Positions 16,776 to 36,281 of a stretch of DNA of 64,000 nt are shown here, piece by piece (position 1 is the first letter of the stretch; each line of letters starts with the position of its first letter). Both the position numbers and the translations under genes were made by a program. The notes beneath the pieces are model-generated. The model was not told the DNA's origin. It did no database searches and saw nothing but the letters and a program-made list of their open reading frames with translations. This DNA comes from a virus. Lineage: Duplodnaviria > Caudoviricetes. The stretch lies in IMG/VR virus record IMGVR_UViG_3300034101_006325, positions 136,304 through 200,303 of that record; one strand, written 5' to 3'.

Positions 16776-18692
16776 ATGACTAATCTAAATTTTAAAGAAA
16801 ATATTTTTGGTGTTAAGAGTAAGCTGGATCCAGAGGCTCATGTAATTGTTGTCGCAGATTTATTTGTAGAAGATTATGTGGGAGGAGCGGAATTAACCAC
16901 TGAAGCCTTAATCAATACTTCTACATTAAAAATTCAAAAAGTTAGAAGCAGAGATGTCAACATAGAAATGCTTCGTGAAGGAGTTTCCAAGTTTTGGGTA
17001 TTTGGAAATTTTGCGGGTCTTAACCCTCAATTATTACCAACAATTATTGGTAATCTTAAATATACAGTTCTTGAATACGATTACAAGTATTGCAAATATC
17101 GATCCCCAGAAAAACATTTGTCAGTTACAAAATCTTCATGTGACTGTCATGAACAAATGAATGGCAAGTTGGTTTCAGCATTTTATTATGGTGCCACTTG
17201 CTTATGGTGGATGTCGGAAGCTCAAAAAGAAAAGTATCACAGCATTTTTCCTTTCCTGGCGGAAAAATCAAACATAGTTTTGTCCAGCGTTTTTTCTAGA
17301 GAAACACTCGGAAGAATTAAGTTTCTTAGAGAAAAGTTTAAAAATGAAGAAAAGAAAGGGTGGATTGTCCTAGGATCTGATTCATGGATCAAAGGCGCAG
17401 ATGCTGCAAAGAATTGGTGCGAAGAAAACAATAAAGATTATGAGGTTGTGTGGGGATTATCTTATGAAGAACTTTTGGCAAAATTGTCAGTATCAGAAGG
17501 ATTTGTTTATCTACCCCTTGGAAAAGATACATGCCCCCGCATGGTTATAGAAGCAAAGTTGTTAGGATGCAATCTTCATCTTAATGAAAATGTCCAGCAT
17601 AAAGACGAAGAGTGGTTTAATACTGACAATCTAGACGAGATAGAAGAATATCTTTATGCTGCGCCAGATTTATTTTGGAATGCAATAAGGACAATAATAA
17701 GTTATAAGCCAAAGATAAGTGGTTACACGACAGTTTATAATGCAGAATCGCAAGGTTATCCTTTTGTTGAGACTGTTAAGTCTATGTTAGGATTTTGTGA
17801 TGAAGTATGCGTTTTGGACGGAGGGTCAACAGACAACACGTACAGCATTCTTCAAGAATTAGCAAAAAATGACGACAGAATAAAATTGTCTGTACATAGA
17901 ATTAACTTTGAATCACCCGACTATGCTAGAGAATCAGACGGGATGCAAAAAGCAAGAGCAAGAGATCTTTGTACGGGAGAATTTTGTTGGCAAATGGATT
18001 GTGATGAAGTAGTACACGAAGAAGATTATGAAAAAATCATAGACCTTTGCAAAAAATTTCCAAATGGTATAGATCTAGTCTGTCTTCCTGTGGTTGAATA
18101 TTGGGGAGGACCTAACAAAGTAAGAGCTGATATTATGCCATGGAAGTGGCGTTTAAGTAGAAATAAGAAGAACATTACACATGGTGTCCCAAGAGATGCT
18201 TCTTTGTTAGGTGAAAATAATTTAATATCAAGCGATGGCTGTGACATTGTGGACAGAGAAACAAATGAAAGAATTCAAAGCATTAATTTTTACAATGCTC
18301 AGATTGACACGATACGAAGAATGGCTGTTTCAGGTAACGCCGAGGCATTGAGCAAATATGAGACTTGGTACAATGCAGTCTCAGAAAATATACCTACAGT
18401 ATATCATTACAGCTGGTATGACATGGAAAGAAAAATTAGACTTTATAAAAATTATTGGTCTAAATTTTGGATAAATCTCGTTGGTAAGCAATACGAAGAC
18501 ACCGCAGAAAACAATATGATGTTTGATGTTCCTTGGCATCAAGTAACAGACGAGATGATTAAGGAAAGAGCGAAGGAATTTTCTGACAAATTAGGCGGCT
18601 GGATTTGGCATAGAAAATGGGACGGAGCTACAATCACACATTCTGTGAATATAAAAAGATCTCAGCCAAAGATCATGTTGGAGAAAAAATGA
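16776..18692 (+). CDS. Bifunctional glycosyltransferase (N-terminal GT4-like/GT-B, C-terminal GT2/GT-A)
   Basis: DTCPRMVIEAKLLG (GT4 E-x7-E-like); ISGYTTVYN, VLDGGSTDNT, QMDCDE (GT2). Confidence 0.8.
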   Translation: MTNLNFKENIFGVKSKLDPEAHVIVVADLFVEDYVGGAELTTEALINTSTLKIQKVRSRDVNIEMLREGVSKFWVFGNFAGLNPQLLPTIIGNLKYTVLEYDYKYCKYRSPEKHLSVTKSSCDCHEQMNGKLVSAFYYGATCLWWMSEAQKEKYHSIFPFLAEKSNIVLSSVFSRETLGRIKFLREKFKNEEKKGWIVLGSDSWIKGADAAKNWCEENNKDYEVVWGLSYEELLAKLSVSEGFVYLPLGKDTCPRMVIEAKLLGCNLHLNENVQHKDEEWFNTDNLDEIEEYLYAAPDLFWNAIRTIISYKPKISGYTTVYNAESQGYPFVETVKSMLGFCDEVCVLDGGSTDNTYSILQELAKNDDRIKLSVHRINFESPDYARESDGMQKARARDLCTGEFCWQMDCDEVVHEEDYEKIIDLCKKFPNGIDLVCLPVVEYWGGPNKVRADIMPWKWRLSRNKKNITHGVPRDASLLGENNLISSDGCDIVDRETNERIQSINFYNAQIDTIRRMAVSGNAEALSKYETWYNAVSENIPTVYHYSWYDMERKIRLYKNYWSKFWINLVGKQYEDTAENNMMFDVPWHQVTDEMIKERAKEFSDKLGGWIWHRKWDGATITHSVNIKRSQPKIMLEKK

Positions 18693-19045
18693 AAAATATC
18701 CATGAGTCAATCAGTAATCTTTTGACTGTTAAATTAAATTCATACAAAGAAAAATCCCTTAATAAAGAAATTTGCATAAAAATATATCAGGATATATTTG
18801 ATTGTTTTGTCAATTTATTTCAAGAATCAAATATCAAAATTTCAAATGAATCAATGAATTTATTATCACAAATGTATTATGACGCTGTCAAGATTAATTC
18901 AACGCAGGATCTAGATCCAGGAATCTTTGATAAAAGAGCATCAATAAAAAATATTGAAACCAAAGAATTGGCTCTTTTAGCAACTATGTTAAATGGTACT
19001 GTTTTTTCTGAACCTATAATTTATGAGATAAAGAGGCGATCTTGA
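18689..19045 (+). CDS. Hypothetical protein
   Basis: Start refined to ATG 18689 (ATGA overlap with upstream stop). Confidence 0.6.
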   Translation: MKNIHESISNLLTVKLNSYKEKSLNKEICIKIYQDIFDCFVNLFQESNIKISNESMNLLSQMYYDAVKINSTQDLDPGIFDKRASIKNIETKELALLATMLNGTVFSEPIIYEIKRRS

Positions 19046-19890
19046 TAATTGTCACAAATGACTACGGATGTGGCACATCTTCATCTATAATAGACTACAA
19101 TTTACAAAATTATTGCATAGTATCAGAAGAAAATTGGGAACATGTTTTTGATTTAGATGATGATGTTCTTTTGGTAGGTCATGATTTTCTTTTCTACATG
19201 TGGGATACACAAGAAAAAGTAGAAAGATGGAAGAAATTTCAACATGCTAAAATTTTATGGTGTTTTGAAAGAGTAGATGCCATATTTGCCGAATGGCTGG
19301 CAAAAAGTCATTTTAGCATAAAAATGGCATCACAATTTGTTGATTCCATCTATGCTTGCGATGAAGATGATTGCAACAAATATGGATTTAAATGGTTGCC
19401 TCAGTGGGCATCAAATAAATTTTATGAAAAAAGAGGCATTAATCCTACAAAAGGAAACACCATACTCTTTAGCGGCCAAGCAGGAAAAATTGAATACAAA
19501 CCAAGAACTGCTCTTCTGCAACAAATTTTTCATGACAAAGATATTAAAGATTTGTTTTATATTAGCAACATAACAAGAGAACTGACATGGGATCAATACA
19601 TTGACAACTTTCTTAGTTATAAAATAATACTAAACCCCGTGGGAACTCTTAAGGCATTAAACACAAGAGCTTATGAAGCTCTTTATTCAGGAAGAATTCT
19701 TCTTCAACACACGGCAGGCGAATATAAAAGACACGAAGAAATGTTGTCAGAAACTCCTCATGTATTATTTTTTAAAAATTACGACGAATTAAAACAAAAA
19801 ATAAAACAAATAGATTTGTGTAAAATAAATGCCGATTTAGCATTTAAAGACAATAATCTTGTTGAACGTCTTCAAAGAATAAAAATTTAA
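19042..19890 (+). CDS. Glycosyltransferase, CgeB/YkvP-like (GT-B)
   Basis: LFSG...YKPR...YKIILNP...NTRAYEALYSG matches the N.R.FE..A.G motif; TTG start overlapping upstream stop. Confidence 0.7.
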   Translation: MIIVTNDYGCGTSSSIIDYNLQNYCIVSEENWEHVFDLDDDVLLVGHDFLFYMWDTQEKVERWKKFQHAKILWCFERVDAIFAEWLAKSHFSIKMASQFVDSIYACDEDDCNKYGFKWLPQWASNKFYEKRGINPTKGNTILFSGQAGKIEYKPRTALLQQIFHDKDIKDLFYISNITRELTWDQYIDNFLSYKIILNPVGTLKALNTRAYEALYSGRILLQHTAGEYKRHEEMLSETPHVLFFKNYDELKQKIKQIDLCKINADLAFKDNNLVERLQRIKI

Positions 19891-19904
19891 TTATATAAAA
19901 ATTC

Positions 19905-20519
19905 ATGACAAATCAATGGCAAAATTATTTAAACAGTAATTGCAAAATTATTGCAACAATATCGACAAAAAATAATGCAAATTCAATTTATGAATGCATA
20001 AAAAAAACACTGCCGCATTTTGAGGCAGTGTTTGTTATAGACAATGGATCTTCTGACGATACTCAAAAAGAAATTTACAAATTTATAAGAAGAGAAAGAA
20101 GTAAAAATTTATTTATTTTTGATTATTCTCATAATAAACATTGGCAAACACTACCAGAAAGTGAAATACTTGACTTGTCAAGAATGAAAGCAAATGAGTT
20201 TATTGCTACATCTATGATTAATGTACCTCACTTGTGGGCATCTTTAAGACCTAACATTATGCTTGGCCCAAATACAAGAGAATTAATTTTAGAAAATTGT
20301 TTTAATTGGACAAAGCCCGAATTAAATCATAATTTTTATAGAACATCAAATGGCAATTGGTCAGTGTCAATTACTTTTAAACAAGGAAAGCTGATGGTGG
20401 GACCAGATTCTGCCAATCCGGCTGAACCTTGCTTTTATTTAAAAAATGAAGAAAATATATTGAAAACAAAATTTGATGAAAGTCAACATTCGTCTATTAT
20501 AATTGGAGAAGAAGTATGA
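19905..20519 (+). CDS. GT2-like protein (short, possibly degenerate)
   Basis: N-terminal GT2 pattern ISTKN..IYECI...FVIDNGSSDDT; no clear DxD. Confidence 0.55.
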   Translation: MTNQWQNYLNSNCKIIATISTKNNANSIYECIKKTLPHFEAVFVIDNGSSDDTQKEIYKFIRRERSKNLFIFDYSHNKHWQTLPESEILDLSRMKANEFIATSMINVPHLWASLRPNIMLGPNTRELILENCFNWTKPELNHNFYRTSNGNWSVSITFKQGKLMVGPDSANPAEPCFYLKNEENILKTKFDESQHSSIIIGEEV

Positions 20520-21421
20520 GAATAATGGTAACTGGGGGCAGAGGTTTTATTGGCAGCCATTTTGTGGAATTAGCTCTTCAAAATAATCATACAATTATTG
20601 ATGTTGATTTAATGACATATTGTTCAAATAGTTCTCTTCCGTGGGATAATCATGAAAATTACAAACATCTTAAACAAGACATTGTTGATATTAAGCATCT
20701 TCCCTTTTGTGATGTAGTTGTAAACTTTGCTGCAGAAACTCATGTTGATAATTCAATTACTTACTCTCTAGACTTTGCAAGAACTAATTTTAATGGAGTT
20801 CATAATCTTCTTAACCTCATTAGAGGAAAAGTTTATGAAAGGCCATATTTCGTCCAAATTAGCACGGATGAAGTTTATGGCGACATAAAAGAAGGAGAAT
20901 TTAATGAGTCAAGTCCTTTAAAACCCTCCAATCCATATAGCGCAACCAAAGCAGCTGCGGAACATTTAGTGACCAGTTACTCAAGAACATATGGCATCGA
21001 TTATCTCATTACAAGAAGTTCAAACAATTACGGACCTCGCCAGTATGAAGAAAAGCTGATATCTAAAACAATTAGCTGTTTAAAAGAAAATAGAAAAATT
21101 CCTCTTCATGGAGATGGGTCTTACCTTAGAGACTGGATTTATGTTAAGGATAATGCAAAAGCTATTCTTGAATTAGTTGAATCAAATATAAAAAATGAAA
21201 CTTTTAATATTTCTGGCGATCTTCACCTGAGTAACAAAGAAGTCGTAATGCAAGTATGCAATTGGCTTGGTATTTCTAACTGGGAAGATCGTGTTGTTTA
21301 CACTGAGAATAGGCTCGGGCAAGATTTAAGATATTCAATAACAAGTAATAAATTAAAAGAATTTGGAATTAGAATTCCTAAAAAAGAAAAATTGCACAAT
21401 TTTTTAGAGGATATTAAGTGA
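20516..21421 (+). CDS. rfbB: dTDP-glucose 4,6-dehydratase
   Basis: VTGGRGFIG, NFAAETHVDNS, QISTDEVYG, PYSATKA, SSNNYGPRQYEEKLI, RDWIYV. Confidence 0.92.
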   Translation: MRIMVTGGRGFIGSHFVELALQNNHTIIDVDLMTYCSNSSLPWDNHENYKHLKQDIVDIKHLPFCDVVVNFAAETHVDNSITYSLDFARTNFNGVHNLLNLIRGKVYERPYFVQISTDEVYGDIKEGEFNESSPLKPSNPYSATKAAAEHLVTSYSRTYGIDYLITRSSNNYGPRQYEEKLISKTISCLKENRKIPLHGDGSYLRDWIYVKDNAKAILELVESNIKNETFNISGDLHLSNKEVVMQVCNWLGISNWEDRVVYTENRLGQDLRYSITSNKLKEFGIRIPKKEKLHNFLEDIK

Positions 21422-22317
21422 GAAATTATTGCACTTTAGGAGATCACAGATACCTTCCACAGTTAATATGTCTGATCGATTCAATTATTGAAAATTTTAA
21501 TCATGAATATAAAATTCATGTATTGTGTCTTGATGATAAAGTTTTTAATTGCTTAGATAAGAAATACAAAAATATAAATCTGTATCCAATCAATAAGATT
21601 GAAGAAGATTTTAGCATTAAGGCTTTGAGATATCTTCCCGCAGGCCAAGAAGCAATTTCAAATGCTATGTCTTCCAATAAAGACCCGCAATTTGTTCAAT
21701 TTTGCTGGGCTTTAGCTCCATGCTTTACCGATTGGGTTATGCAACGAATAAAACAGTCTTGCACGTATGTCGATGCAGATCTTTTTTTCTTCAATGACAC
21801 AAGTCAATTTTTTAATGAATTAGGAAAAAAATCAATAGGATTGGTTAGACATAGAATCGATTACATCTATACTAGTGGAGAATTTAATGTAGGAATTGTG
21901 CATTTTGAGCATGATGGTCCCGGCAGATCTGCACTAAAATTTTGGTGTGATGCAATGAAAAATCCTAGAAATCAATACTCTCTAGGCTATGGAACTTGCG
22001 GTGATCAAAAATATCTCGAAGCAATTAATTCCATTTATAGAGATGATGTTTCTATTGTTGATAAAAATTTTGGTCATCTCGCACCTTGGAATATAACATT
22101 TCATAAGTACGAAAATGATAAAATTATATGGAACAACACGCAGCAGGACTTGGTGTACTTCCATTTTGCTCACTTTGTAGTTGAAGAAAATGGTTACAGA
22201 GGATCATATAAAAATGAATGGATATGGGGTGATCCTGTTAATCATGATTCTTATGTTAAAAAACTTTATGATCTTTATTATAAAAAAATGATTGAATCCA
22301 TCAAGGAGACTTTATGA
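21418..22317 (+). CDS. GT-A fold glycosyltransferase (GT8-like)
   Basis: YVDADLFFF (DxD), FNVG, DQKYL, HFAH; GTG start with overlap. Confidence 0.7.
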   Translation: MRNYCTLGDHRYLPQLICLIDSIIENFNHEYKIHVLCLDDKVFNCLDKKYKNINLYPINKIEEDFSIKALRYLPAGQEAISNAMSSNKDPQFVQFCWALAPCFTDWVMQRIKQSCTYVDADLFFFNDTSQFFNELGKKSIGLVRHRIDYIYTSGEFNVGIVHFEHDGPGRSALKFWCDAMKNPRNQYSLGYGTCGDQKYLEAINSIYRDDVSIVDKNFGHLAPWNITFHKYENDKIIWNNTQQDLVYFHFAHFVVEENGYRGSYKNEWIWGDPVNHDSYVKKLYDLYYKKMIESIKETL

Positions 22318-23195
22318 AAATTTCTGCAGCAATGATTGTTTTAAACGGTGACCATGTGTTGCAACAATCTTTAGCAAGTATTTATAATTTTGTTGATGAG
22401 ATTGTAATTGCAGAAGGTCCTGTTAAATTTTGGCAGTCTAAAGGGATCACAAAATCTACAGACAACACATTGGAAATAATAAAAAGCTTTCATGACCCTT
22501 CCAGAAAAATCAAATTAATTTCTTCTCAATATGAAGAAAAGAACGAGCAATTCACGGCAGCATTAAATTTATTGTCAAGTAATCCAAATTATCTTCTACA
22601 AGTCGATGCAGATGAGGTATGGACCGAAGAATCTTTAAAAAATCTTAAAAATTTATTACAAGATAGGCAACCAGTATCTGTAGGCATCCATTCAAATACT
22701 TTTGTTGGAGGATTTGACAGAGTCATCTCAGGCTTTGAAGAAAATACAGATAATTTTTTAAGAGTTTTTAAATGGGAAGATGAATGCAAATTTATAACAC
22801 ATCGACCGCCAACTATTAGATACAAAGATGGCAATCAAACAAGAGGTAAAAATCACATAGATTCAGACGAAGCAAGAGATTATTACAATATCTCAATGTG
22901 TCATTATTCTTATGTGTGGCCTTCTCAAGTCAAATCAAAAATAGAATATTACAAAGCTAAAGTCTCTATGCAAAATTGCATACCTGATTTTTATGAAAAT
23001 TACTGGCTCCCGTGGACTAAATCAACAACAATTGAAGAAAAATGGGAAATTGAAAAAAGAATAATGGGAATGCATGAATTTAGACCTGAAGTTAGAGGAC
23101 CAGCATTTACTAAAGAATTTAAAGGTACGCATCCAATACAAATTACCAACAATAAATTAAATTTATTAAATAGAATTAAGAAAGAAATAGAATAA
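22314..23195 (+). CDS. GT2-family glycosyltransferase
   Basis: ISAAMIVLN, VDEIVIAEG, STDNT, QVDADEVW, MCHYSYV. Confidence 0.75.
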   Translation: MKISAAMIVLNGDHVLQQSLASIYNFVDEIVIAEGPVKFWQSKGITKSTDNTLEIIKSFHDPSRKIKLISSQYEEKNEQFTAALNLLSSNPNYLLQVDADEVWTEESLKNLKNLLQDRQPVSVGIHSNTFVGGFDRVISGFEENTDNFLRVFKWEDECKFITHRPPTIRYKDGNQTRGKNHIDSDEARDYYNISMCHYSYVWPSQVKSKIEYYKAKVSMQNCIPDFYENYWLPWTKSTTIEEKWEIEKRIMGMHEFRPEVRGPAFTKEFKGTHPIQITNNKLNLLNRIKKEIE

Positions 23196-23936
23196 ATGGT
23201 TGCTTCATCTTATGCTATAGGAACAAATCCGTGGAATAGAGATGATATGATAAGTCATCTTAAAGAATTTTTAAATATTTATAAAAACAAACCAATAGAT
23301 GACAACAGTGGGGGACAAAAAGCTGCTCAACTTTTTTATTCATGGTATGTTGTAAAAAAAATTAAACCAAAAATTATTATTGAAAGCGGAGTATTTAAGG
23401 GACAAGGAACATGGGCATTTGAACAAGCTTCACCCGAATCTGAACTAATATGTTTAGATCCGTATTTGGAAAAATGGGGCGGTTATAGATCAAAAAAACC
23501 GCAATATCTTCAAAAAGATTTTAAAGAAATTAATTGGGACCACATTGAAGATAAATCTAATGTTTTGTGTTTTTTTGATGATCATCAAAATGCATTTAAT
23601 AGAATAGTTCAAATGAAACTTTTTGGTTTTAAAGTTGCAATGTTTGAAGATAACTACCCAGAAGGGCATGGAGACTGTTTATCTTTAAAGAAAATATTTG
23701 AAAATTCAGAGGCCTATCAAATATTGCCAGAATTAACATGCAAAGATTATCTTGAAAAAGTTGTAAAATGCTATCATGAACTTCCGCCTATTTGTTCTCT
23801 AGCAAAAACAAGATGGAATACTGAATGGAACGATTATCGTTCTAACAAACCCTTGCTTGAAGAATTAAATGATGAATTAGTTATTTTTCAAGATGAAATG
23901 GATCAGTATACTTGGATAAATTATGTTGAGTTATAA
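23196..23936 (+). CDS. Class I SAM-dependent methyltransferase-like protein
   Basis: IIIESGVFKGQGTW, ICLDP, FFDDH; found in a glycan cluster. Confidence 0.5.
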   Translation: MVASSYAIGTNPWNRDDMISHLKEFLNIYKNKPIDDNSGGQKAAQLFYSWYVVKKIKPKIIIESGVFKGQGTWAFEQASPESELICLDPYLEKWGGYRSKKPQYLQKDFKEINWDHIEDKSNVLCFFDDHQNAFNRIVQMKLFGFKVAMFEDNYPEGHGDCLSLKKIFENSEAYQILPELTCKDYLEKVVKCYHELPPICSLAKTRWNTEWNDYRSNKPLLEELNDELVIFQDEMDQYTWINYVEL

Positions 23937-23953
23937 TGTAAAGAGTTATTGCT

Positions 23954-24556
23954 ATGAGTTGGCAAGAGTCTGATAAAATTGTAGATCAAATGATCAGAGG
24001 ATCCAATGGATCTCTGTGGGGATTTAAATTAGAACAATCAAGTCATTTTCCTATTCTAGAAAAATTATTAAAAATCTCAGGACAAAAAGATCTACTTGTT
24101 GACATTGGATGTGGAGCAGGAGATGTTTCACGTTCTTGGAATGGAGATTATCTTGGAGTTGATTTAGACTGGGTTATAAAAAGAGTATCAAGAATTTGCA
24201 ATCCTAGTAAAACTTTTTTAAGTCTAGACATTACGTCTAAAGATACTTTTTATGATATTCCTAAATCTAATTGTTTGCTAATGAATGCATTTCTTGACGT
24301 TCAAGAAAATCCTTTAGAAGTTCTTGAAAAATTTTGTAGACAAGTTGATACAAACTGGATAATTGTTCATAGGCAAAGAATAAGGAATATTGAAAAAACA
24401 AAAATTGAATATGTTCCTGGCTACGGCGGTTCTTTAATACCTTCTTCTGTTATTTCTTTTAAAGAAATAAATGATATTAAACAAAAATATTCTAAAGAAT
24501 TTTTAATTGGATTGTGGGAAAATGATTGGTATTCATTTGCAATGAGAATCAAATAA
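23954..24556 (+). CDS. Class I SAM-dependent methyltransferase
   Basis: LVDIGCGAG, YLGVDL; stop overlaps the aminotransferase start (TAATG). Confidence 0.75.
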   Translation: MSWQESDKIVDQMIRGSNGSLWGFKLEQSSHFPILEKLLKISGQKDLLVDIGCGAGDVSRSWNGDYLGVDLDWVIKRVSRICNPSKTFLSLDITSKDTFYDIPKSNCLLMNAFLDVQENPLEVLEKFCRQVDTNWIIVHRQRIRNIEKTKIEYVPGYGGSLIPSSVISFKEINDIKQKYSKEFLIGLWENDWYSFAMRIK

Positions 24557-25617
24557 TGAAATTTGTAGATCTACAATTTGAAAATAAAAATGCAAAACTA
24601 TCATCAAAAAATAGTTTTAAACTTATTGAAAAAACTGGAAAGTATCTTCTTGGAGAATATTTAGAAAATTTTGAAAATCAATTTGCTAAGGATCAAGATA
24701 AAAAATATTGCATAGGCGTAAAAAATGCGACGGATGCGCTTGCAATATCATTTAAAGCTCTTGGATCAGAAAATAGAACCGTTATTATTCCTCAATTTGG
24801 TGCATATCCTACTGTGATGGCAGCGATTCAAGCTAATTCAAAAAATATAATAGCTGCTCCCGTAGATGAAACTTTATGTCTTAATCTCGAGGATGTTAAA
24901 ATACCAGATAATAGCATAATCGTTCCTGTCAATCTATTTGGAAATGAATCAAATTTAACTTACTTAAGAAAAAGAGCAGATGAAACAAATAGTCATATTG
25001 TAGAAGACTGTGCTCAATCAACAGGAATTCCTAATAATAATCTAAGTGATGTCTCTATTCATAGTTTTTATCCTACTAAACCGCTTGGTTGTCAAGGAGA
25101 TGGCGGGGCAATTCTCACGAATGATGAAAGAATTGCTAAATTCTGTAAACAAGCAAGATTTTATGGTCTTAATGATGGAATAATTGATTCCTGGGGTTTT
25201 AATAGTAGAATGGACGAGTGGCAATCCTGCTTTTTAACATCAAAACTATCATACTATAGAAATTTAAATGACACTAGAAAAGAAAATGCAAATTTATACA
25301 ATCAAATTCTAAATAAGAGCATTAGATACACAGAAAATTGCGTTTATCATCAGTATGTAAGTCTTTGGAAGGATAGAAAGTATATTCAAAAAAAATTATC
25401 AGAAAAAGGCATTCCTACGATGATTCATTACCCTAAAATGTTAATTGATATGCCATACCTTCGGGACAAAGTTAAATTTGTCAATGAGTGTCCAAGAGTT
25501 TCTGATTATATTCTGTCAATTCCAGTGGGGCCACATCTTACAAATCAAAATATTAAAAAAATAAAAAAAGAAATCAATAGCTTAAAGAGTAATTTAATTG
25601 ATTTTAAAGAAATTTAA
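24556..25617 (+). CDS. DegT/DnrJ/EryC1/StrS PLP-dependent sugar aminotransferase (FdtB-like)
   Basis: NATDAL, PVNLFG, VEDCAQS, SFYPTKPLGCQGDGGA (PLP Lys), NSRMDEWQ, VYHQY; start refined to MKFVDL. Confidence 0.9.
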   Translation: MKFVDLQFENKNAKLSSKNSFKLIEKTGKYLLGEYLENFENQFAKDQDKKYCIGVKNATDALAISFKALGSENRTVIIPQFGAYPTVMAAIQANSKNIIAAPVDETLCLNLEDVKIPDNSIIVPVNLFGNESNLTYLRKRADETNSHIVEDCAQSTGIPNNNLSDVSIHSFYPTKPLGCQGDGGAILTNDERIAKFCKQARFYGLNDGIIDSWGFNSRMDEWQSCFLTSKLSYYRNLNDTRKENANLYNQILNKSIRYTENCVYHQYVSLWKDRKYIQKKLSEKGIPTMIHYPKMLIDMPYLRDKVKFVNECPRVSDYILSIPVGPHLTNQNIKKIKKEINSLKSNLIDFKEI

Positions 25618-28225: not shown

Positions 28226-29295
28226 ACATGGCTTGTATTATTAAAATACCTGACGAAAACTCAAAAGGTGTCGTTACATTCACCACACAAGAAAGAGACA
28301 AATTAATTTTTAATGATAAAGCAATTTTTGAAAAAATTGTTACTTTAAAAAAAGATTATATAGTTGGTCTTCATCACAATTGGCATGATTACAACTTTAG
28401 ATATCATCCTTTGTTTGATTTTAGTATGGCTGGGGAGGGAGATCTTGGCAATTCGGAAGTTCCTCTTATAACTTTAGATGCATGCAATTTCATTCCAGAA
28501 GAATTTCATTCATCGACAGGAGAAAAATTTTGGGATGTAGTCTATGTTACACGTGCTGTCTATTTTAAAAGAGTCGATCTTTTCTTCAAGGCTATAAAGA
28601 AAATTTATGACACAGGTAAAAAAATAAAAGTATTACTTGTTTGTTGCATCCCTCCAGAAGATGCAACTCCTAAAAATGTTATTGAAGACTATCTTTCAAC
28701 TTTTAACGAAGAAGAAAGAAAATATTTTACTTTTCTACCATTAACACATGATTATCCTTTTTGTCTAGATCCGGCATCAATAGGATTTTTTTATAGATCC
28801 TCAAAGATATTTGCCCACTTTGCTAATGATGAAAGAAGATGCAGAGTAGTAGCAAATGCCGCTGCAACATGCATGCCAATAGTTTGTATGTCTGACCCTG
28901 CTTCAATTATTCCAGAACATTTAAAAAAGCCACCATACTGTTATATTGTTAAAAGTGATGATGATTTTTCAAATAAAATTATTCAATCACTTAATGAATA
29001 TGATGAAAATAAAAATTTATTTGAATTATCAAAACATTTTAGTGTAAAACATACAAAACAAGAACTTAAACAACAATTAGAAAAATTTTTAAAAATTTCA
29101 AAAGATAAAATGTTAGATTCTTCTTTTAATTTTTTTAATCTTGACATTAGACTTGGAAGACATCACAGCATCAGCTACGGACCAAATAAAGTCAATATGT
29201 CTTTAGATGAATTTTCTAAAATATTGCTTGATAAACAAAATTTAAGTTTAATATGGGATTCTTCTTGTAAAGATTTTGAAAAGAAAATTTCATGA
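28219..29295 (+). CDS. Glycosyltransferase, GT4-like
   Basis: WDVVYVTR...KRVDLF, YRSSKIF, RVVANAAATCMPIV; start may be 28228. Confidence 0.6.
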   Translation: MVNMACIIKIPDENSKGVVTFTTQERDKLIFNDKAIFEKIVTLKKDYIVGLHHNWHDYNFRYHPLFDFSMAGEGDLGNSEVPLITLDACNFIPEEFHSSTGEKFWDVVYVTRAVYFKRVDLFFKAIKKIYDTGKKIKVLLVCCIPPEDATPKNVIEDYLSTFNEEERKYFTFLPLTHDYPFCLDPASIGFFYRSSKIFAHFANDERRCRVVANAAATCMPIVCMSDPASIIPEHLKKPPYCYIVKSDDDFSNKIIQSLNEYDENKNLFELSKHFSVKHTKQELKQQLEKFLKISKDKMLDSSFNFFNLDIRLGRHHSISYGPNKVNMSLDEFSKILLDKQNLSLIWDSSCKDFEKKIS

Positions 29296-29363
29296 ATCAA
29301 AATCATTTTGATCCAAATTAAAATGGGACAATTGTTTGTTAATTCCTATAAGTAAGAAATTAT

Positions 29364-30059
29364 ATGCATAATATTCATTTAAATTCAATTAATGAAAAAG
29401 GTTATGCATTAATTCCTAATTTTTTAGGAAGCAATGAAGTCAAAAATTTAAAAAATAGCTTATTCAAAATATACAGCAACTATAGATTAGGTGATCAGAT
29501 AGAAATACCCGGAATGTCTACGCCTAAGCAATATAGTACTGGAAAATCCATGAGAATTTATCCTCCTGCATATTGTAATTTTTCTGAAATTGAAAATTTT
29601 AAGAAAGATTGGCTCACACAACTTACTGATGCTTTTTTTGAAGGAGCAAATAATAAAGGACTTCAAGTATTTTCTTCATATGAAACATTGTCTTACAGAG
29701 AAGTCAACGAATTACCTAGAAATTCTCACATGCACGTAGATCCATATCATTCTCTTAAATTTTTTAGTTATTTGACTGATACAACCAAAGAGAATGGCGC
29801 ACTTCAATTAATTCCGGGTACAAGCTGGATTGGCAAAAAAATAAGAAAAGAAAACAGCATTAATGAACTATTGACCAGCGATTTATATACCTTTAAAAAA
29901 AGCAATTATTATAATTCTGATCTTGAAAAAGAAACTACTTTTATCGAAGGTAAAGCTGGCGATCTAATAATTCTAGATACAGATACTGTGCATTGTGGGG
30001 GTATTCTTGTAAAGCCAGGGCTAGAAAGACTTACAATAATCTATCACAATAGGAAATAG
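29364..30059 (+). CDS. Phytanoyl-CoA dioxygenase-like 2OG-Fe(II) oxygenase
   Basis: EKGYALIPNFL, HVD, YLTDTTKENGALQLIPGT, AGDLIILDTDTVHCG, distal Arg. Confidence 0.85.
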   Translation: MHNIHLNSINEKGYALIPNFLGSNEVKNLKNSLFKIYSNYRLGDQIEIPGMSTPKQYSTGKSMRIYPPAYCNFSEIENFKKDWLTQLTDAFFEGANNKGLQVFSSYETLSYREVNELPRNSHMHVDPYHSLKFFSYLTDTTKENGALQLIPGTSWIGKKIRKENSINELLTSDLYTFKKSNYYNSDLEKETTFIEGKAGDLIILDTDTVHCGGILVKPGLERLTIIYHNRK

Positions 30060-30060: not shown

Positions 30061-30660
30061 ATGAAAACTTGTGCCATTGTAGGAAATTCTTCTTGTTTAT
30101 TGGATAAAAGTTATGGAAGTTTTATCGATAGTCATGATGAAGTTATAAGATTTAACATGGCACGAACAAGAGGATTTAAAAAATATGTTGGAACAAAAAC
30201 GACAATAAGATTTTGTAATCAACACATTGTTATGTCCAATTTTTCAGACGATTATTTAAAAGAACAGCTTAAAGTCTTTCCAGAATGGGACAATAAAGAA
30301 ATTCTAACGTGGGAAAAACAAAAATTATTTTTTAAATATAGCAAAGAGCTTAAAGGAACAGAGCTTGAATCTCAGTTGTTTTCTAAAAACAATGAGATTT
30401 ACTACATAAGTGATTTAGAAATAATAAAATTAAAAAGAAAATTAAATGTAGAACCTACAATGGGGTTAGTGGGATTAGATTATGCTTTGACATTTTTTAG
30501 TACAATAAATTGCTTTGGTTTTGATTTTTATAAAAATCAAAACAGATCTTTTCATTATTTTGAAAAAACAATACCTTATAAATCTTGCCATGATCATAAA
30601 GAAGAAAAGAAATTCTTCAAAGATGCTGAAGAATCAGGAAAGATAAAAATTTATAGATGA
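30061..30660 (+). CDS. GT29-family sialyltransferase-like protein
   Basis: Sialylmotif L (CAIVGNSSCLLDKSYGSFIDSHDEVIRFNMA...VGTKTT), S-like (PTMG...INCFGFDF), III (HYFE), VS-like (HDHKEE). Confidence 0.85.
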   Translation: MKTCAIVGNSSCLLDKSYGSFIDSHDEVIRFNMARTRGFKKYVGTKTTIRFCNQHIVMSNFSDDYLKEQLKVFPEWDNKEILTWEKQKLFFKYSKELKGTELESQLFSKNNEIYYISDLEIIKLKRKLNVEPTMGLVGLDYALTFFSTINCFGFDFYKNQNRSFHYFEKTIPYKSCHDHKEEKKFFKDAEESGKIKIYR

Positions 30661-31283
30661 AAATATTGATTCCTGCACGAATGGGATCCAAAGGATTCCC
30701 TAAAAAAAATAGAATTTTATTTGATTATACTGCTAGAATTATTCCTAAAGATTTCATTAAAAATACAGTAGTTTCGACAGATGACCCTGAAATTGTCAAA
30801 ATGGCTGAATCTTATAATTTCTTAGTTCATCATCGATCAGAAGAATTATCAAGAGATGAAACTTCTACAAAAGAAGTAGTTGAATCTTTTTTAAAACAAG
30901 AAATTATTGATGATAATTCAAAGTTAACAGCGCTTTTATATTTGACTTATCCGCAAAGAAAATGGGATGATGTTGTCAGAGCAAAAGAATTGATTGATAG
31001 CTCTAAATCAAAATCTTTGCTATGTGCATTTGACATCGAGGCACATCCATTTTTAATGGCATTTGAAATGCCAGGTCATAGAGGAAAACAATTATATAAA
31101 CACAATTTATATAGAAGACAGGATTATCCTAAATGTTTTGAAATATCACATTTTGTATGTATGTTTTATGACGATGAAGTAAAAAATTTAAATAATAATC
31201 TCTATAATGAAGACACATATTTTATGAAATGTAATAAAAAGGTAGATGTTGATCTACTAGAACATTTTTTAAAAATACAATGA
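30657..31283 (+). CDS. neuA: CMP-nonulosonate (acylneuraminate) cytidylyltransferase
   Basis: IPARMGSKGFPKKN, VSTDD, R.EELSRDETS, LTYPQR, RRQD, DVD. Confidence 0.88.
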   Translation: MKILIPARMGSKGFPKKNRILFDYTARIIPKDFIKNTVVSTDDPEIVKMAESYNFLVHHRSEELSRDETSTKEVVESFLKQEIIDDNSKLTALLYLTYPQRKWDDVVRAKELIDSSKSKSLLCAFDIEAHPFLMAFEMPGHRGKQLYKHNLYRRQDYPKCFEISHFVCMFYDDEVKNLNNNLYNEDTYFMKCNKKVDVDLLEHFLKIQ

Positions 31284-32098
31284 AAAAAATTAAAATTATT
31301 GCAGAAATTGGAATAAATCACAACGGCAGTGTTGAGTTGGCAAAAAAGATCATTGCAGTGTCTGCAGCAGCAGGCTGTGATTATGTTAAATTTCAAAAAA
31401 GAAACCCAGATGTATGTGTACCAGAAGATCAAAAATTAAAAGTTAGGTCTACTCCGTGGGGAGAAATGACGTACATTGACTATAAGAAAAAAATTGAATT
31501 TGAAAAAGAACAATATGATGAAATTGACAAATTTTGCAAACAATTAGGCATTAAATGGTTTGCGTCTGCGTGGGATTTATCTTCTCTTGATTTTTTAAAA
31601 AGATATTCAGATGTTGTAAAGATTCCATCAGCACTTATTACAAATGAAGAACTTTTATTGAATGCAAGAAAAAAATTTGATTTTCTTTTAATATCAACTG
31701 GCATGAGTACTGAGTCTGAGGTAGAAAATGCAGTTAAAATTTCAAATCCCGATGTAATTTTTCATACTAACTCAAGTTATCCTAGCAAAGTTGAAGATTT
31801 AAATTTAAACTACATAAAACATCTAAAAAATAAGTTTAATAGAACGGTGGGTTATAGTGGACATGAATTTGGACTTGTTACAACATTTGCAACTGTACCT
31901 TTGGGTGTCGAATGGATAGAAAGACATGTCACTTTAGATAGAGAAATGTGGGGATCTGATCAAAAATCATCTGTAGAACCATCGGGTATTTACAAGCTTG
32001 TCAAAGGAATACGGGATATAGAAAAATCATTAGGAAGTATTGGGCCAAGAGTAATTTGTAAAGAAGAATTAGAAAAGAAAAAATCACTTAGAGGTTGA
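31280..32098 (+). CDS. neuB: Nonulosonic acid synthase (NeuB/NANS family), short form without C-terminal antifreeze-like domain
   Basis: IAEIGINHNG, VKFQKR, FASAWD, KIPSA, ISTGMS, GYSGHE, IERHVTLD, GSDQ; 272 aa. Confidence 0.92.
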   Translation: MKKIKIIAEIGINHNGSVELAKKIIAVSAAAGCDYVKFQKRNPDVCVPEDQKLKVRSTPWGEMTYIDYKKKIEFEKEQYDEIDKFCKQLGIKWFASAWDLSSLDFLKRYSDVVKIPSALITNEELLLNARKKFDFLLISTGMSTESEVENAVKISNPDVIFHTNSSYPSKVEDLNLNYIKHLKNKFNRTVGYSGHEFGLVTTFATVPLGVEWIERHVTLDREMWGSDQKSSVEPSGIYKLVKGIRDIEKSLGSIGPRVICKEELEKKKSLRG

Positions 32099-32406
32099 AT
32101 GTGTTAATTTACGTAGATATTGATGAAACAATCTGCAATACGCCTGACGATAGAAACTATTTAAAGTCTACACCCATAAAAAAAAATATAAAAATTATAA
32201 ATTCTCTTCATGAAAAAGGCCATCAAATTGTTTATTGGACTGCAAGAGGAACAGTCACAGGAATTGATTGGTCAAATGAAACTATTAGACAGTTAGACGA
32301 ATGGGGTGTCAAAAGAACAAAAGTTCTTTTTGGAAAGCCAGCATATGATTTATTCATATGCGACAAAGCGATTAATTCAAATGTTTTTTTTAATTTAACT
32401 CAATAA
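32095..32406 (+). CDS. HAD-superfamily phosphatase (capsule-biosynthesis type)
   Basis: YVDIDETIC (DxDxT), WTARG, GKPAYD..ICDKA; TTG start overlapping neuB stop. Confidence 0.8.
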   Translation: MNVLIYVDIDETICNTPDDRNYLKSTPIKKNIKIINSLHEKGHQIVYWTARGTVTGIDWSNETIRQLDEWGVKRTKVLFGKPAYDLFICDKAINSNVFFNLTQ

Positions 32407-32419
32407 GGCATATTAATTT

Positions 32420-32926
32420 ATGATCAAACTTTTACCGATGATGCAATTGGAAGAGCTAAATCTTCTCGAAAAATATCTTGATAAAGAAAAAGTGATTTGC
32501 GAATACGGCTCAGGCGGTTCTACAAATTGGCTTTCAGAAAGAACCAAATTTGTATATTCAATAGAACACAACAAAGAGTGGTATGATAAAACAAAAAGTA
32601 GTTTGTCAAATAGAGAAAATGTAGAAATTTTTTATGTCCCAAGTTTTAATTGGGACCCAAGCACCGAAGGAAATATTGATAGTTTTGAAAACTACATTAA
32701 TATGCCAGGAACTTTAAATATAGATTTTTCTTTCTTTTTAGTGGATGGCAGAGCTAGAGTTGACTGTTGCAGGTTTATATCAAAAAAATTTCCAACAGCT
32801 ATTATTGCTTTTCATGACTATACCAATAGAGCAAATGATGTTGAGCACAATTATTCAAGAGTCTTAGAACATTTAACTTTAATTGAAACCTGTAAAACTC
32901 TTGCAATTTTTAAAAAGAAAGTCTAA
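32420..32926 (+). CDS. Class I SAM-dependent methyltransferase-like protein
   Basis: ICEYGSGGST, SIEHNKEW, LVDGRAR, FHDY. Confidence 0.7.
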   Translation: MIKLLPMMQLEELNLLEKYLDKEKVICEYGSGGSTNWLSERTKFVYSIEHNKEWYDKTKSSLSNRENVEIFYVPSFNWDPSTEGNIDSFENYINMPGTLNIDFSFFLVDGRARVDCCRFISKKFPTAIIAFHDYTNRANDVEHNYSRVLEHLTLIETCKTLAIFKKKV

Positions 32927-33855: not shown

Positions 33856-33859
33856 GTGG

Positions 33860-35107
33860 ATGAAGAAAAAAACGATTTTAATGCTATCAGATCATCCTTT
33901 GTCTACTTCAGGCGTAGGCACACAGGCAAGATGGTTAATAACAGGTTTAATCAACACTGGTAAATATAGTTTTAGATGTTTTGGTGGTGCTGTTAGACAC
34001 GATAACTACGATCTTAACGTAGTAAGTCCTGATTTTGTCATTAAACCGACAAATGGTTTTGGTGATAGAAATCTTTTAAGAAAAACTCTAGCACAATTAA
34101 AACCCGACGCTCTTCTTCTCTTTACGGATCCAAGATTTTTTATTTGGACTTGGGAAATGGAGGATGAGATTCACCAAGTCTGTCCTATTGCTTATTGGCA
34201 CTTATGGGATAATGGACCTTGGCCGGAATTTAATAGGGCACTATACGCGTCCAATGATTTGATCAATTGCATTAATTATCCGACCTATGAGATGGTCAAA
34301 GAACGTTTTCCAGATAGGACAAATTATATTCCACATGCTGTCCCAAAGGATCTTTACTATCCTTTACCTGACGAAGAGGTAAAAAACTTTAAAAGAAATC
34401 TTTTAGGCAAAGATAAAGAAGATCATTTTGTTGTGGGATATGTTAGTAGAAATGCCCGTCGAAAAATGCCAAGTGACATTATTGTTTCTTGGAAAATGTT
34501 TATTGATGAGCTAAAGAAAAAGCATGGGCACACAAAAGCCAGTCTTGTCATGCATACAGAGCCTTTAGATCCGGAAGGACCTAACTTACATCATGTATTA
34601 GATTCATTGGACGCGAAAGATCATGTTGTTTTTTCTAATAAACGTGTAAATTTTCAAGAAATGAATGTGATATACAACATATTCGATACAATCGTTAATA
34701 GAAGCTCTAATGAAGGTTTTGGACTTCCTACACTAGAAACAATGATGTGTGGCAAACCAATTATTGCAATAAAGACAGGCGGTTTAACGAGACAAGTCGA
34801 AGATCCTGATACGGGTTTTCAACACGGCATAGCGTTGGAACCTGAAATAAAGTCTTTGGTGGGAAACCAAATGGTTCCTTACATTTATGAAGATTTCATA
34901 AGCCACAAAACTTTGGCAGATGCATTTATGAAAATGTACGAAATGGGTCCTGAAAAAAGAAAAGAACTTGGACAAAAAGCAATGCAGCATGCGCACAAAA
35001 ATTACAATATTGACAATATGATAAAAGATTGGGATTCTTCTTTGACCAAATTAATTGACAATTGGCAAGAAGGCAAAAACAAGAGATGGACGCACGAGGA
35101 GATTTGA
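33860..35107 (+). CDS. GT4-family glycosyltransferase
   Basis: SDHP...SGVGTQ, YIPHAV, SRNARRK, NEGFGLPTLETMMCGKPII. Confidence 0.88.
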   Translation: MKKKTILMLSDHPLSTSGVGTQARWLITGLINTGKYSFRCFGGAVRHDNYDLNVVSPDFVIKPTNGFGDRNLLRKTLAQLKPDALLLFTDPRFFIWTWEMEDEIHQVCPIAYWHLWDNGPWPEFNRALYASNDLINCINYPTYEMVKERFPDRTNYIPHAVPKDLYYPLPDEEVKNFKRNLLGKDKEDHFVVGYVSRNARRKMPSDIIVSWKMFIDELKKKHGHTKASLVMHTEPLDPEGPNLHHVLDSLDAKDHVVFSNKRVNFQEMNVIYNIFDTIVNRSSNEGFGLPTLETMMCGKPIIAIKTGGLTRQVEDPDTGFQHGIALEPEIKSLVGNQMVPYIYEDFISHKTLADAFMKMYEMGPEKRKELGQKAMQHAHKNYNIDNMIKDWDSSLTKLIDNWQEGKNKRWTHEEI

Positions 35108-35108
35108 A

Positions 35109-36281
35109 ATGAAAAAAGCAATTCTTAGAGGACCTTCTCTCACACAATCCGGTTATGGCGTTCATTGTAGACAAGTTGCATCTTGGCTCTTGTCAAAAAA
35201 AGATTGGGATGTCAAATTCCAAGCTCTGCCATGGGGAGATACCCCGTGGTTATTAAATGAAAAATCAAATGATGGTTTGATTGATAGAATTATGAAGAAT
35301 ACTGTGGACCTATCTGACAGTAATTCTAATTATGACATCTCCTTTCAATTACAGCTTCCTAATGAATGGGATCACAAACTTGCAAAATACAATGTTGGAA
35401 TGACTGCAGGAATTGAAACTGATATTTGCAATCCTGTGTGGATAGACTGCTGTAATAAAATGGATTTAGTCATAGTTCCTTCAAAGCACGCAGAAAATTC
35501 ATTAAAAAATTCAGGAAAAATTAACACACCAATTCAAATAGTACCAGAATCGTTTTGCAATGAAATTTTAGACGAAACAAGCACAGATCTTTTGAAAAAT
35601 TTCCCTACATTTAGCACAAATACTAATTTTCTGGTATTTGGACAGATTACAGGGGACAATCCCATGAATGATAGAAAGAATATTTTCTTCACTATTAAAT
35701 GGTTTTGTGAAGTCTTCAAAGATGATCCTGATGTAGGTCTTGTAATAAAGACAAATATCGGTAGAAATACTCAGATTGATAAAAAGAAAACGTTAGAATT
35801 GATGTCAATCATTGTAAAAGAATGCAGAAAAAGTCAATTTCCTAAAATTCATATTATTCATGGTGACATGACAGACAAAGAAGTTGCTGCGTTATACAAG
35901 CATCCTCAGATTAATGGATTTATTTCCCTAACAAGAGGAGAGGGATATGGCCTACCCCTGTTGGAAGCAGCAGCTAGCGGGCTACCAGTTATTGCCACAG
36001 GTTGGTCGGGACATATGGACTTTTTATCCCGAGGAAAGTTTATTGAAATAGACCACGATGTGAAAAAAATACATGCATCAAGAGCAGACAATAAACTATT
36101 CATGCCTGAAGCAAAATGGGCTGAAGCAAATGAAGATGACTTCAAGAAAAAAATCGTAAAATTTAAAAATTCTCAAGCAAAACCCAAAGAATGGGCAAAA
36201 GAATTAGAATTAATCATTAAAGAAAATTATAGTCAGGAATCAATTTTTAAATACTATGACAAAGTAGTTGAAAATATATGA
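35109..36281 (+). CDS. GT4-family glycosyltransferase
   Basis: SGYGVHCR, IVPSKH, RKNI, RGEGYGLPLLEAAASGLPVIATGWSGH; start refined to MKKAIL. Confidence 0.88.
   Translation: MKKAILRGPSLTQSGYGVHCRQVASWLLSKKDWDVKFQALPWGDTPWLLNEKSNDGLIDRIMKNTVDLSDSNSNYDISFQLQLPNEWDHKLAKYNVGMTAGIETDICNPVWIDCCNKMDLVIVPSKHAENSLKNSGKINTPIQIVPESFCNEILDETSTDLLKNFPTFSTNTNFLVFGQITGDNPMNDRKNIFFTIKWFCEVFKDDPDVGLVIKTNIGRNTQIDKKKTLELMSIIVKECRKSQFPKIHIIHGDMTDKEVAALYKHPQINGFISLTRGEGYGLPLLEAAASGLPVIATGWSGHMDFLSRGKFIEIDHDVKKIHASRADNKLFMPEAKWAEANEDDFKKKIVKFKNSQAKPKEWAKELELIIKENYSQESIFKYYDKVVENI

Follow-up and report, generated by a model that had tools for sequence, protein, structure and literature searches.

A conserved glycosyltransferase frame and an exchangeable cassette make up a soluble glycan-biosynthesis locus in freshwater jumbo phages

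We describe a glycan-biosynthesis island at positions 16776 to 36281 of a 64-kb stretch of viral DNA (hereafter the window), which is the final 64 kb of the linear, 200,303-bp IMG/VR contig IMGVR_UViG_3300034101_006325. The island is a lineage-wide, fully soluble glycan assembly line that consists of a fixed frame and an exchangeable cassette. The frame comprises a 638-amino-acid (aa), two-domain glycosyltransferase (GT) on the left and, on the right, a PD-(D/E)XK nuclease and two GT4-type enzymes of 415 and 390 aa (GT4-415 and GT4-390) that are predicted to form a heterodimer. The cassette between them turns over from phage to phage and here includes a nonulosonate module with a GT29 sialyltransferase-like protein. 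As to what the glycan is attached to, our best guess, which we hold with a little less than even confidence, is that it is added in the cytoplasm to one or more virion proteins of the phage itself.

An earlier reading made from the sequence alone (the sequence-only reading) had listed about nine GT genes, four deoxy- or amino-sugar enzymes, a nonulosonate module, about five methyltransferases and a dioxygenase, all on one strand and mostly with overlapping stop and start codons. Searches against Pfam, NCBIfam, the PDB and a language-model atlas bore out most of this inventory (Table 1). In particular, the island contains 24 co-oriented open reading frames (ORFs) on the plus strand that are mostly translationally coupled, with stop/start overlaps of 4–8 nt at 19045/19042, 20519/20516, 21421/21418, 22317/22314, 27019/27012, 27650/27647, 28225/28219, 30660/30657, 31283/31280, 32098/32095 and 36281/36278. 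Pfam and the atlas together gave nine GT genes with 10 GT domains; the four sugar enzymes are RmlB-like, DegT, Gmd and an FdtA cupin; the NeuB, HAD phosphatase, CMP-synthetase and GT29 genes of the nonulosonate module were confirmed by Pfam and NCBIfam; and the dioxygenase belongs to the PhyH family. The count of methyltransferases came out at four (three by Pfam, one by the atlas), and the description of the locus as a glycan island, although sound for the rest, does not extend to the gene at 32984–33799, which encodes the nuclease.

The sequence-only reading had also predicted that the central cassette would vary between fixed flanking GTs, and this is what we found in a comparison of about 36 related loci and contigs (given L numbers where they need to be told apart). 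The inspected loci share the order variable cassette, PD-(D/E)XK nuclease, GT4-415, GT4-390, 100-aa protein, gp55-like sigma factor, 121-aa protein, 497-aa protein and baseplate genes. The left edge was reached in two loci only (L008 and L009), both of which have the same 638-aa two-domain GT (62% and 53% identical, respectively), preceded in L008 by the same minus-strand block of PhoH, helicase, ClpP and 383-aa genes. Judging from the identities in Table 1, GT4-415 is the most conserved gene of the region, and the frame GTs are more conserved than the structural proteins. GT4-415 had 4430 homologues and the 497-aa protein hundreds, and the best 120 GT4-415 clusters were all at least 71% identical. 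With thousands of metagenomic proteins in this GT4 family, the locus is thus a major and abundant feature of freshwater jumbo phages.

Genes of the cassette behave differently. When a match over at least half of the query length at E ≤ 1e-8 was scored as a homologue, genes between 19042 and 32926 mostly had none in the 36 related loci. The first part of the cassette had none besides the matches of its RmlB-like gene, which are at the level of the short-chain dehydrogenase/reductase (SDR) family (23–26% identity, seven loci). The third part is shared solely with the closest relatives, L010 and L011 (whose GT4-415 proteins are 96% and 87% identical), both of which have the PhyH-GT29-NeuA-NeuB-HAD block, and the gene order of the second part recurs in the closest relative. 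The other exceptions are a small HAD gene in L007 and L009, a distant NeuB-like gene in two loci, and Gmd, which is 77–80% identical in eight related loci. (Note that the identity of Gmd in these eight otherwise unrelated cassettes is above that of most frame genes, which suggests either strong constraint or recent exchange among cassettes.) The 142-aa protein encoded next to the left frame gene has a homologue in four related loci and is 52–67% identical in L008, L009 and L034, although its position in the locus varies. Among 17 non-redundant loci, 162 cassette ORFs fell into 96 families, 66 of which were seen in one locus. The Pfam content of the relatives' cassettes includes GT2, GT1/4, methyltransferases, Gmd and other SDRs, UDP-galactopyranose mutase, WbqC, nucleotidyltransferases and GNATs, to which single loci add GT10/GT11 fucosyltransferases and a UDP-glucose dehydrogenase. 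The GC content of the cassette is 30.2%, compared with 34–36% for the frame genes. A distant version of the locus in LR756508.1 (L001, 305506–346006) has five GT29 paralogues, GT10, two GT25, two carbohydrate sulfotransferases, Gmd, NeuB and CMP-synthetase, a toolkit for sialylated, fucosylated and sulfated glycans.

Table 1. Features of the island and its surroundings, with the basis of each assignment and the identity to homologues in related loci
Feature	Position in window	Strand	Basis	Identity
638-aa two-domain GT, left frame gene	16776..18692	+	GT-B-like N-terminal half, GT2 C-terminal half	
142-aa protein, function unassigned	18617..19045	+	no Pfam family	
Cassette part 1: GT1-like, GT2-like, RmlB-like 4,6-dehydratase, GT8-like, GT2, two methyltransferase-like	19042..24556	+	Pfam, NCBIfam, atlas	
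Cassette part 2: DegT aminotransferase, GDP-mannose 4,6-dehydratase, FdtA-like cupin, two S-adenosylmethionine (SAM) methyltransferases	24526..28225	+	Pfam, NCBIfam	
Cassette part 3: GT4-like transferase and PhyH-family 2-oxoglutarate dioxygenase	28219..30059	+	Glycos_transf_1 4.6e-7, PhyH 1.5e-9	
Cassette part 4: nonulosonate module and a 168-aa protein without assigned function	30061..32926	+	Pfam, NCBIfam, PDB	
GT2 genes	16776, 19905 (weak), 22314	+	Pfam	
GT1/GT4 genes	19042 (weak), 28219, 33860, 35055	+	Pfam	
GT8-like gene	21418	+	language-model atlas, 0.98	
RmlB-like SDR	20516	+	Pfam/NCBIfam	
Methyltransferases (n = 4)	23196 (atlas), 23954 (weak), 27012, 27647	+	last three by Pfam	
DegT aminotransferase	24526	+	Pfam	
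Gmd (true)	25657	+	NCBIfam equivalog, 453 bits against a cut-off of 415	
FdtA cupin	26648	+	Pfam	
PhyH dioxygenase	29364	+	Pfam	
GT29 sialyltransferase-like	30061	+	PF00777, E 3.5e-27, model positions 55-270 of 272	
CMP-synthetase	30657	+	Pfam/NCBIfam	
NeuB	31280	+	Pfam/NCBIfam	
Small HAD phosphatase	32095	+	Pfam/NCBIfam	
PD-(D/E)XK nuclease, right frame gene 1, non-glycan	32984-33799	+	Pfam PDDEXK_1, 6e-17	45-88%, 31 related loci
GT4-415, right frame gene 2, retaining GT-B glycosyltransferase	33860..35107	+	Pfam, 1.3e-12	62-96%
GT4-390, right frame gene 3	35109..36281	+	Pfam, 2.5e-8	53-90%
100-aa acidic protein with N-terminal membrane anchor	36278..36580	+	hydropathy 2.75, residues 1-19	
gp55-like late sigma, conserved right neighbour	36564..37307	+	PHROG 234, E 2.2e-5	54-96%
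497-aa neighbour				35-57%, excluding near-identical L010 (85%)
gp6-like baseplate wedge				46-69%, excluding near-identical L010
Hc1 histone H1-like gene	11490-11672	-		66% to the PF07432-annotated gene of L008

The gene content suggests how such a glycan might be built. The cassette would make, from host pools, a GDP-linked and probably N-methylated amino-dideoxyhexose (through Gmd, the cupin isomerase, the aminotransferase and two methyltransferases, the second part of the cassette being predicted to encode a methylated amino-dideoxyhexose pathway), as well as a 4-keto-6-deoxyhexose derivative (through the RmlB-like enzyme) and a CMP-nonulosonate (through NeuB, the phosphatase and the CMP-synthetase). 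The 638-aa GT and the predicted GT4 heterodimer of the frame, both of whose enzymes are catalytically intact, would attach and extend a conserved inner glycan on a conserved acceptor; six further GTs would add the donors to this glycan, with the GT29-type enzyme placing the nonulosonate cap. Virion proteins would be modified in this way before or during assembly, resulting in serotype-like coats that differ between related phages.

The putative sialyltransferase passes the family-profile test, including the region of sialylmotif L, and it matches structures of ST6Gal1 at 1.5e-10 and of ST3Gal1 at about 1e-10. NeuB is without its C-terminal part (it matches model positions 3–272 of 329). Note that NeuB is followed by a small phosphatase and that no enzyme forming N-acetylmannosamine is present in the island, which makes a 9-phosphate route, possibly to 2-keto-3-deoxy-nononic acid (KDN), plausible. 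In the 638-aa GT, Pfam GT2 covers residues 319–449 (E 2e-11) and there is a weak match to the second GT2 domain of chondroitin synthase; residues 1–305 are placed by the atlas in viral clusters, some with Glycos_transf_1, and for this reason we describe this half as GT-B-like.

On the right side of the frame, the last GT most likely starts at 35109 and not at 35055, which gives a protein of 390 aa as in the relatives. GT4-415 has an EX7E motif at residue 285, and the motif of GT4-390 is retained in 35–36 of 36 homologues. An AlphaFold model of GT4-415 (predicted local distance difference test (pLDDT) 85) has a GT-B fold, the nearest folds in PDB and BFVD searches being MshA, sucrose-phosphate synthase, GlgM, chlorovirus B736L, HepE and BshA. 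We considered these fold searches as a guide to the acceptor and set them aside; the neighbours are generic GT-B and GT4 proteins that do not identify one. When GT4-415 and GT4-390 were modeled as a complex, the score was 0.84, compared with 0.00 for the best control (the mark used for this score was reached by 51 of 78 solved complexes and by 2 of 108 mismatched pairs). Moreover, the runs shared at least 97% of contacts and the pLDDT of the partner was at least 91. These models predict that the two enzymes form a heterodimer.

A pair of this kind is already known in GtfA-GtfB, the protein O-GlcNAc transferase of serine-rich repeat adhesins, an adjacent GT4-type heterodimer of solved structure that glycosylates protein in the cytoplasm and in which GtfB is catalytically inactive. 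The phage proteins resemble GtfA-GtfB in that they are adjacent, of GT4 type and (as a prediction) heterodimeric. They differ in that both keep EX7E and in that no serine-rich acceptor was found on the contig. Neither GtfA nor GtfB appeared among the top hits as a specific match, in sequence or in fold.

The nuclease gene is preceded, in 32927–32983, by a sigma70-like promoter (TTGAAC-N16-18-TATAAT-like) that is kept in at least four of six phages (homologous sites in L005–L011). This suggests that the nuclease, the GT4 pair, the 100-aa protein and the gp55-like sigma factor are one unit, separate from the cassette. The 100-aa protein, the gene for which overlaps those of both GT4-390 and the sigma factor, is conserved in five relatives. 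It is the sole anchored product, encoded just past the island, and could either act with the sigma gene, as an anti-sigma-like regulator, or tether the GT pair to the membrane. Between the nuclease and GT4-415 genes (33800–33859) there is an inverted repeat, CAACTTTT..AAAAGTTG, followed by GGTAATATA, that is conserved in most relatives.

The nuclease-GT4-GT4 triad is also found in the cultured Flavobacterium phage immuto (nuclease 26%, GT4-415 32% and GT4-390 32% identical), where it is followed downstream by GT2, aminotransferases, a methyltransferase, a mannosyltransferase, an epimerase and another GT. The nuclease likewise precedes the GT4 pair in Microcystis phage Mel-JY01, which has glycan genes downstream as well, whereas RM378 has a homologue of GT4-415 amid its replication genes, and the 17 kb inspected there contain no annotated glycan genes. 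In Pontimonas phage phiPsal1, a small actinophage, a distant homologue (25% identity) sits with GT2 and a methyltransferase between capsid and neck genes.

We entertained the idea that the nuclease-GT4-GT4 unit and the cassette have different targets, such that the GT4 pair makes, for example, a soluble or lipid glycoconjugate needed for infection and the cassette decorates something else. The conserved promoter of the nuclease gene and the conserved hairpin before GT4-415 are in keeping with this idea, as are the location of the immuto glycan genes downstream and not upstream of the GT4 pair, the setting of the RM378 homologue, and nearest folds with small soluble acceptors (MshA, BshA, sucrose-phosphate synthase and OtsA). 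However, the pair and a glycan cassette co-occur in every inspected member of the clade, and also in immuto, Mel-JY01 and LR756508.1, and the left frame GT closes the other side of the cassette. We consider such a division of labor quite improbable.

The island had been described as running without a strand change into the baseplate genes. The strand is indeed the same, but the membrane-anchored 100-aa protein and the gp55-like sigma factor come first, and the baseplate genes begin at 39180. With a small membrane protein and a regulator as the first downstream genes, the adjacency is weak evidence of late co-expression. Nor are the homologous GT pair or glycan genes located by the baseplate in the wider relatives immuto, Mel-JY01 and LR756508.1.

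Findings with immuto bear also on DNA, which the sequence-only reading had entertained as a possible acceptor. According to this explanation the GTs would glycosylate a modified base, in the manner of T-even phages or of the 5-hydroxymethylcytosine (5hmC)-glycan clusters of Pyle et al., and the nuclease would degrade unmodified host DNA. Lipopolysaccharide (LPS)-related phage GTs can put mono- to trisaccharides on 5hmC (bioRxiv 10.1101/2023.12.21.572611), the linkage of the nuclease to the GT4 pair is maintained, and there are weak matches to the GT4-conflict family. In immuto, however, liquid chromatography with UV detection and tandem mass spectrometry found canonical dA, dC and dT, and dG replaced by the non-glycosylated fdPreQ1, with no glycosyl nucleoside reported (PMC10516641). 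The fact that immuto has the orthologous triad and a glycan cluster yet no glycosylated base argues against a DNA acceptor. In our phage, the thymidylate-synthase/hydroxymethylase profile PF00303 reached only 12.6 bits on the incomplete contig, which is below the cut-off, and Tet_JBP (PF12851) gave no match in a search that had no positive control and did not extend to C5-methyltransferases. Furthermore, known DNA glycans are far simpler than ten GT domains and a nonulosonate cap would imply, neither GT4 enzyme is basic (pI 6.6 and 8.5), and T4-type DNA GTs are absent from the top fold matches. We regard glycosylation of DNA as highly improbable.

The sequence-only reading had noted that the island lacks Wzx, Wzy, an ABC transporter, an undecaprenyl-phosphate (Und-P) initiating transferase and any multi-pass membrane protein, and our searches agree. 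The 19-residue Kyte-Doolittle hydropathy is at most 1.28 in any island protein, so that none has a transmembrane segment; no ORF of at least 60 aa in the window has two or more hydrophobic segments; and none of the 186 cassette ORFs scanned in 19 related loci encodes a multi-pass membrane protein. On the 200-kb contig, which is 61% complete, there was no match to the initiating transferase profiles PF02397 (Bac_transf) and PF00953 (WecA-type) and no significant match to PF01943, PF04932 or PF00005 (Wzx, Wzy and ABC_tran). Because the contig is incomplete, the search for export genes was extended to related genomes. The Wzx, Bac_transf and WecA-type profiles had no match in five partial relatives (~680 kb in total) or in three complete genomes with homologous glycan genes (immuto, Mel-JY01 and LR756508.1). 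GtrA (PF04138), the flippase expected together with a membrane GtrB/GtrC in a GtrABC-type seroconversion module, was absent from the contig and from the same three genomes. Thus, for the families tested, the export genes that might have been encoded elsewhere were found neither on the rest of the contig nor in the relatives. (Two ORFs with multiple transmembrane segments at contig positions 33976–36072 on the plus strand, outside the window, were considered as transporters and rejected; they have no Pfam family and are antisense artefacts inside a gene for a 1185-aa DnaE.)

From the missing export genes it had been concluded that the glycan is probably built on a phage substrate in the cytoplasm. 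This conclusion does not follow, as GTs that build LPS, lipooligosaccharide (LOS) or capsule on lipid carriers at the inner membrane face are also without transmembrane segments, and carrier, flippase and ligase could all come from the host. Soluble phage GTs might work on lipid-linked intermediates of the host (undecaprenyl-PP-sugar or lipid A-core) on the cytoplasmic side of its inner membrane, with the host flippase, ligase and Lpt or capsule machinery exporting the altered glycan and the cell surface, which would change in the course of the long infection, blocking superinfecting phages. Remodeling of the host envelope is the published interpretation of LPS clusters in cyanophages and jumbo phages (Iyer et al. 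2021, PMC7824862) and of the hypervariable host recognition cluster of pelagimyophages and cyanomyophages (Zaragoza-Solas et al. 2020, PMC7029224). It would require no export genes in the phage, and a variable cassette within conserved flanks mimics bacterial O-antigen loci. The LOS- and LPS-type families of the relatives (GT25, GT10, GT11 and WbqC) are in keeping with it, as are the conserved, membrane-anchored 100-aa protein translationally coupled to GT4-390 and the promoter before the nuclease-GT4-GT4-sigma unit, which fits pre-late expression. Against it, the frame GTs are core genes conserved beyond the structural proteins, their orthologues occur in phages whose hosts span phyla with different envelopes, several of the GT families are mainly viral, and neither an initiating transferase nor a flippase or ligase was found in the related genomes searched, nor GtrA in the three complete ones. 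On balance, we consider envelope remodeling a strong rival, though less likely than a virion acceptor.

Virion proteins as acceptor, which the sequence-only reading had thought most plausible, remain our best guess for several reasons. Core status of the kind suggested by the conservation of the frame is unusual for a host-conversion gene and favors a virion acceptor. The triad is kept in phages of Flavobacterium and Microcystis, which belong to different phyla and have different envelopes, and this fits an acceptor intrinsic to the phage. Several of the island's GT families sit in mostly viral clusters of the atlas, which we count in the same direction, and the capsid-neck position of the phiPsal1 homologue may be taken as a precedent, by analogy, for a place in the structural module. 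Virus-encoded, cytoplasmic glycosylation of virions is known from chloroviruses and mimiviruses. A further precedent comes from mycobacteriophages (Freeman et al. 2023, as cited in PMC12619734).

Several points weigh against this assignment. The acceptor is, to begin with, something that we infer. A scan of all contig proteins for Ser/Thr-rich windows found no mucin-like acceptor tract, and candidate sequons (hydrophobic-[ST]-G-x-T, DGY and D[ST][AILVMT]) were not enriched in the virion proteins of the phage. Since GTs that use lipid carriers are soluble too, solubility does not discriminate between acceptors, and the 61% completeness of the contig limits the negative result for export genes. 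Cultured relatives have the GT pair among genes for replication, lysis and nucleotide metabolism, not among virion genes, and here a regulator follows it, which weakens the case for late co-expression. The enzymes whose folds match that of GT4-415 act on small soluble molecules and give no pointer to protein as the acceptor. Finally, given that a GT4-GT4 heterodimer (GtfA-GtfB) has already been solved, the complex score may reflect likeness to it.

Virion glycosylation could also be taken further, to clade-wide, serotype-like coats in which the GT4 heterodimer primes a virion protein and swappable cassettes finish the glycan, here with a GT29-placed nonulosonic-acid cap. The coat would then serve as a first adhesin, or as bait for the glycan-binding surface proteins of a glycan-foraging Bacteroidota host, and exchange of cassettes would set host range. 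We regard this elaboration as a long shot.

Phage glycan islands of this general kind are already known from sequence. The LPS-type myophage clusters cited above resemble the island in having co-oriented SDR dehydratases or epimerases, cupin isomerases, methyltransferases and many paralogous GTs in large genomes, in being polymorphic between relatives, and in lying in or next to the structural region; in neither has the acceptor been identified by experiment. With two SDRs, an FdtA cupin, 10 GT domains and polymorphism, the island shares the defining features of such clusters, the published reading of which is modification of the host O-chain. It differs in that it occurs in another lineage (a relative of immuto, and probably of the moraphages), has a core, highly conserved frame, is without tail-fibre genes, and has a nonulosonate module and a eukaryote-type GT29.

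Bacterial O-antigen and capsule loci likewise have conserved flanks around a swappable center of nucleotide-sugar and GT genes of lower GC content, whereas the phage locus is without an initiating phosphoglycosyl transferase, flippase, polymerase, chain-length regulator or ABC exporter. The systems of mycobacteriophages, chloroviruses and mimiviruses are like the island in that viral nucleotide-sugar enzymes, soluble GTs and methyltransferases work without membrane machinery; the island, too, encodes soluble GTs together with their own donor synthesis. Chloroviruses combine a conserved core glycan with variable decoration, and Megavirinae have clade-specific clusters; the chlorovirus GT4 B736L is, moreover, among the nearest folds of GT4-415. 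The virion glycan has been shown chemically in these virus systems, whereas the island is known from its genes alone, and its gene number (~23) is far above that of the mycobacteriophage systems.

Moraphages are jumbo phages from aquatic habitats, with genomes that reach ~307 kb and hosts predicted to be Bacteroidota; they have chaperone genes and an Hc1 histone-like gene, and the genes shared by at least 80% of their genomes include four putative GT orthogroups (Perez-Hernandez et al. 2025, PMC12619734). Our contig shares with them an Hc1 homologue, a GroEL-like gene, core GTs, a lake habitat and a large implied genome, and these shared traits fit a probable relationship to them. Although the GTs are reported there as core genes, neither a frame/cassette locus nor a nonulosonate module is described (PMC12619734). 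Literature searches on GT29 and nonulosonate pathways in phages, and on LR756508 and Mel-JY01, turned up no directly relevant work.

The CheckV completeness of the contig implies a jumbo phage of roughly 330 kb. Near-identical DNA is present in lake-water and freshwater metagenomes from several studies and in one viral-particle metagenome. Upstream of the island, on the minus strand, lie genes for PhoH, a helicase, a ClpP-like prohead protease and a GroEL-like protein; the gp55-like late sigma factor downstream, on the plus strand, is followed by the baseplate hub and by gp25-like and gp6-like wedge proteins, the latter 33% identical to the gp6-like protein of the 484-kb uncultured phage LR756508.1. 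A megablast search of GenBank phages with the island gave no match, and related-locus searches queried with the 497-aa protein and with GT29 returned no close relatives. Cultured phages have no homologue of the GT8-like gene, and the 638-aa GT gives only a short GT2 match in them.

We also made several observations on the surrounding DNA. The GC content is 40–51% over most of the first 120 kb of the contig and 30–37% over the last 80 kb, including the whole window. This shift is large for a single phage genome and may reflect a chimeric assembly, yet relatives keep the synteny from PhoH to the baseplate. After the baseplate wedge genes, a 1152-aa protein (44622–48080; 51–61% identical in relatives) carries a concanavalin A-like lectin domain (Laminin_G_3), which makes it a candidate for a glycan-binding tail protein. 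The motif TATATTT[AG] occurs 9–82 nt upstream of 14 start codons contig-wide, 12 of the 14 sites being in intergenic DNA; those in the window are at 16744(-), 32971, 55620, 58831(-) and 61698. The motif resembles TAnnTTTG, which we take to be the Bacteroidota -7 promoter element, and this likeness would fit a Bacteroidota host. A scan for sigma70 promoters and terminators gave counts at chance level (105 observed, 101.5 expected), and 8-mer counting revealed no clear phage promoter.

What is new here is the defined frame (two-domain GT, nuclease and predicted GT4 heterodimer) and its core status, the quantified turnover of the cassette, the nonulosonate/GT29 cassette, and the use of immuto DNA chemistry against glycosylation of DNA. 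If the acceptor is a virion protein, such phages would possess glycan serotypes that can be exchanged, some of them sialylated, which would go beyond every phage glycosylation system characterized to date. The locus would then give genetic access to phage-host recognition, to the stability of the particle and to resistance against grazing in lakes. If instead the acceptor lies in the host envelope, the locus would be the first core, lineage-wide phage machine that rewrites the cell surface during lytic infection. Because the cultured phages immuto and Mel-JY01 carry the orthologous nuclease-GT4-GT4 unit with glycan genes, either answer is testable now.

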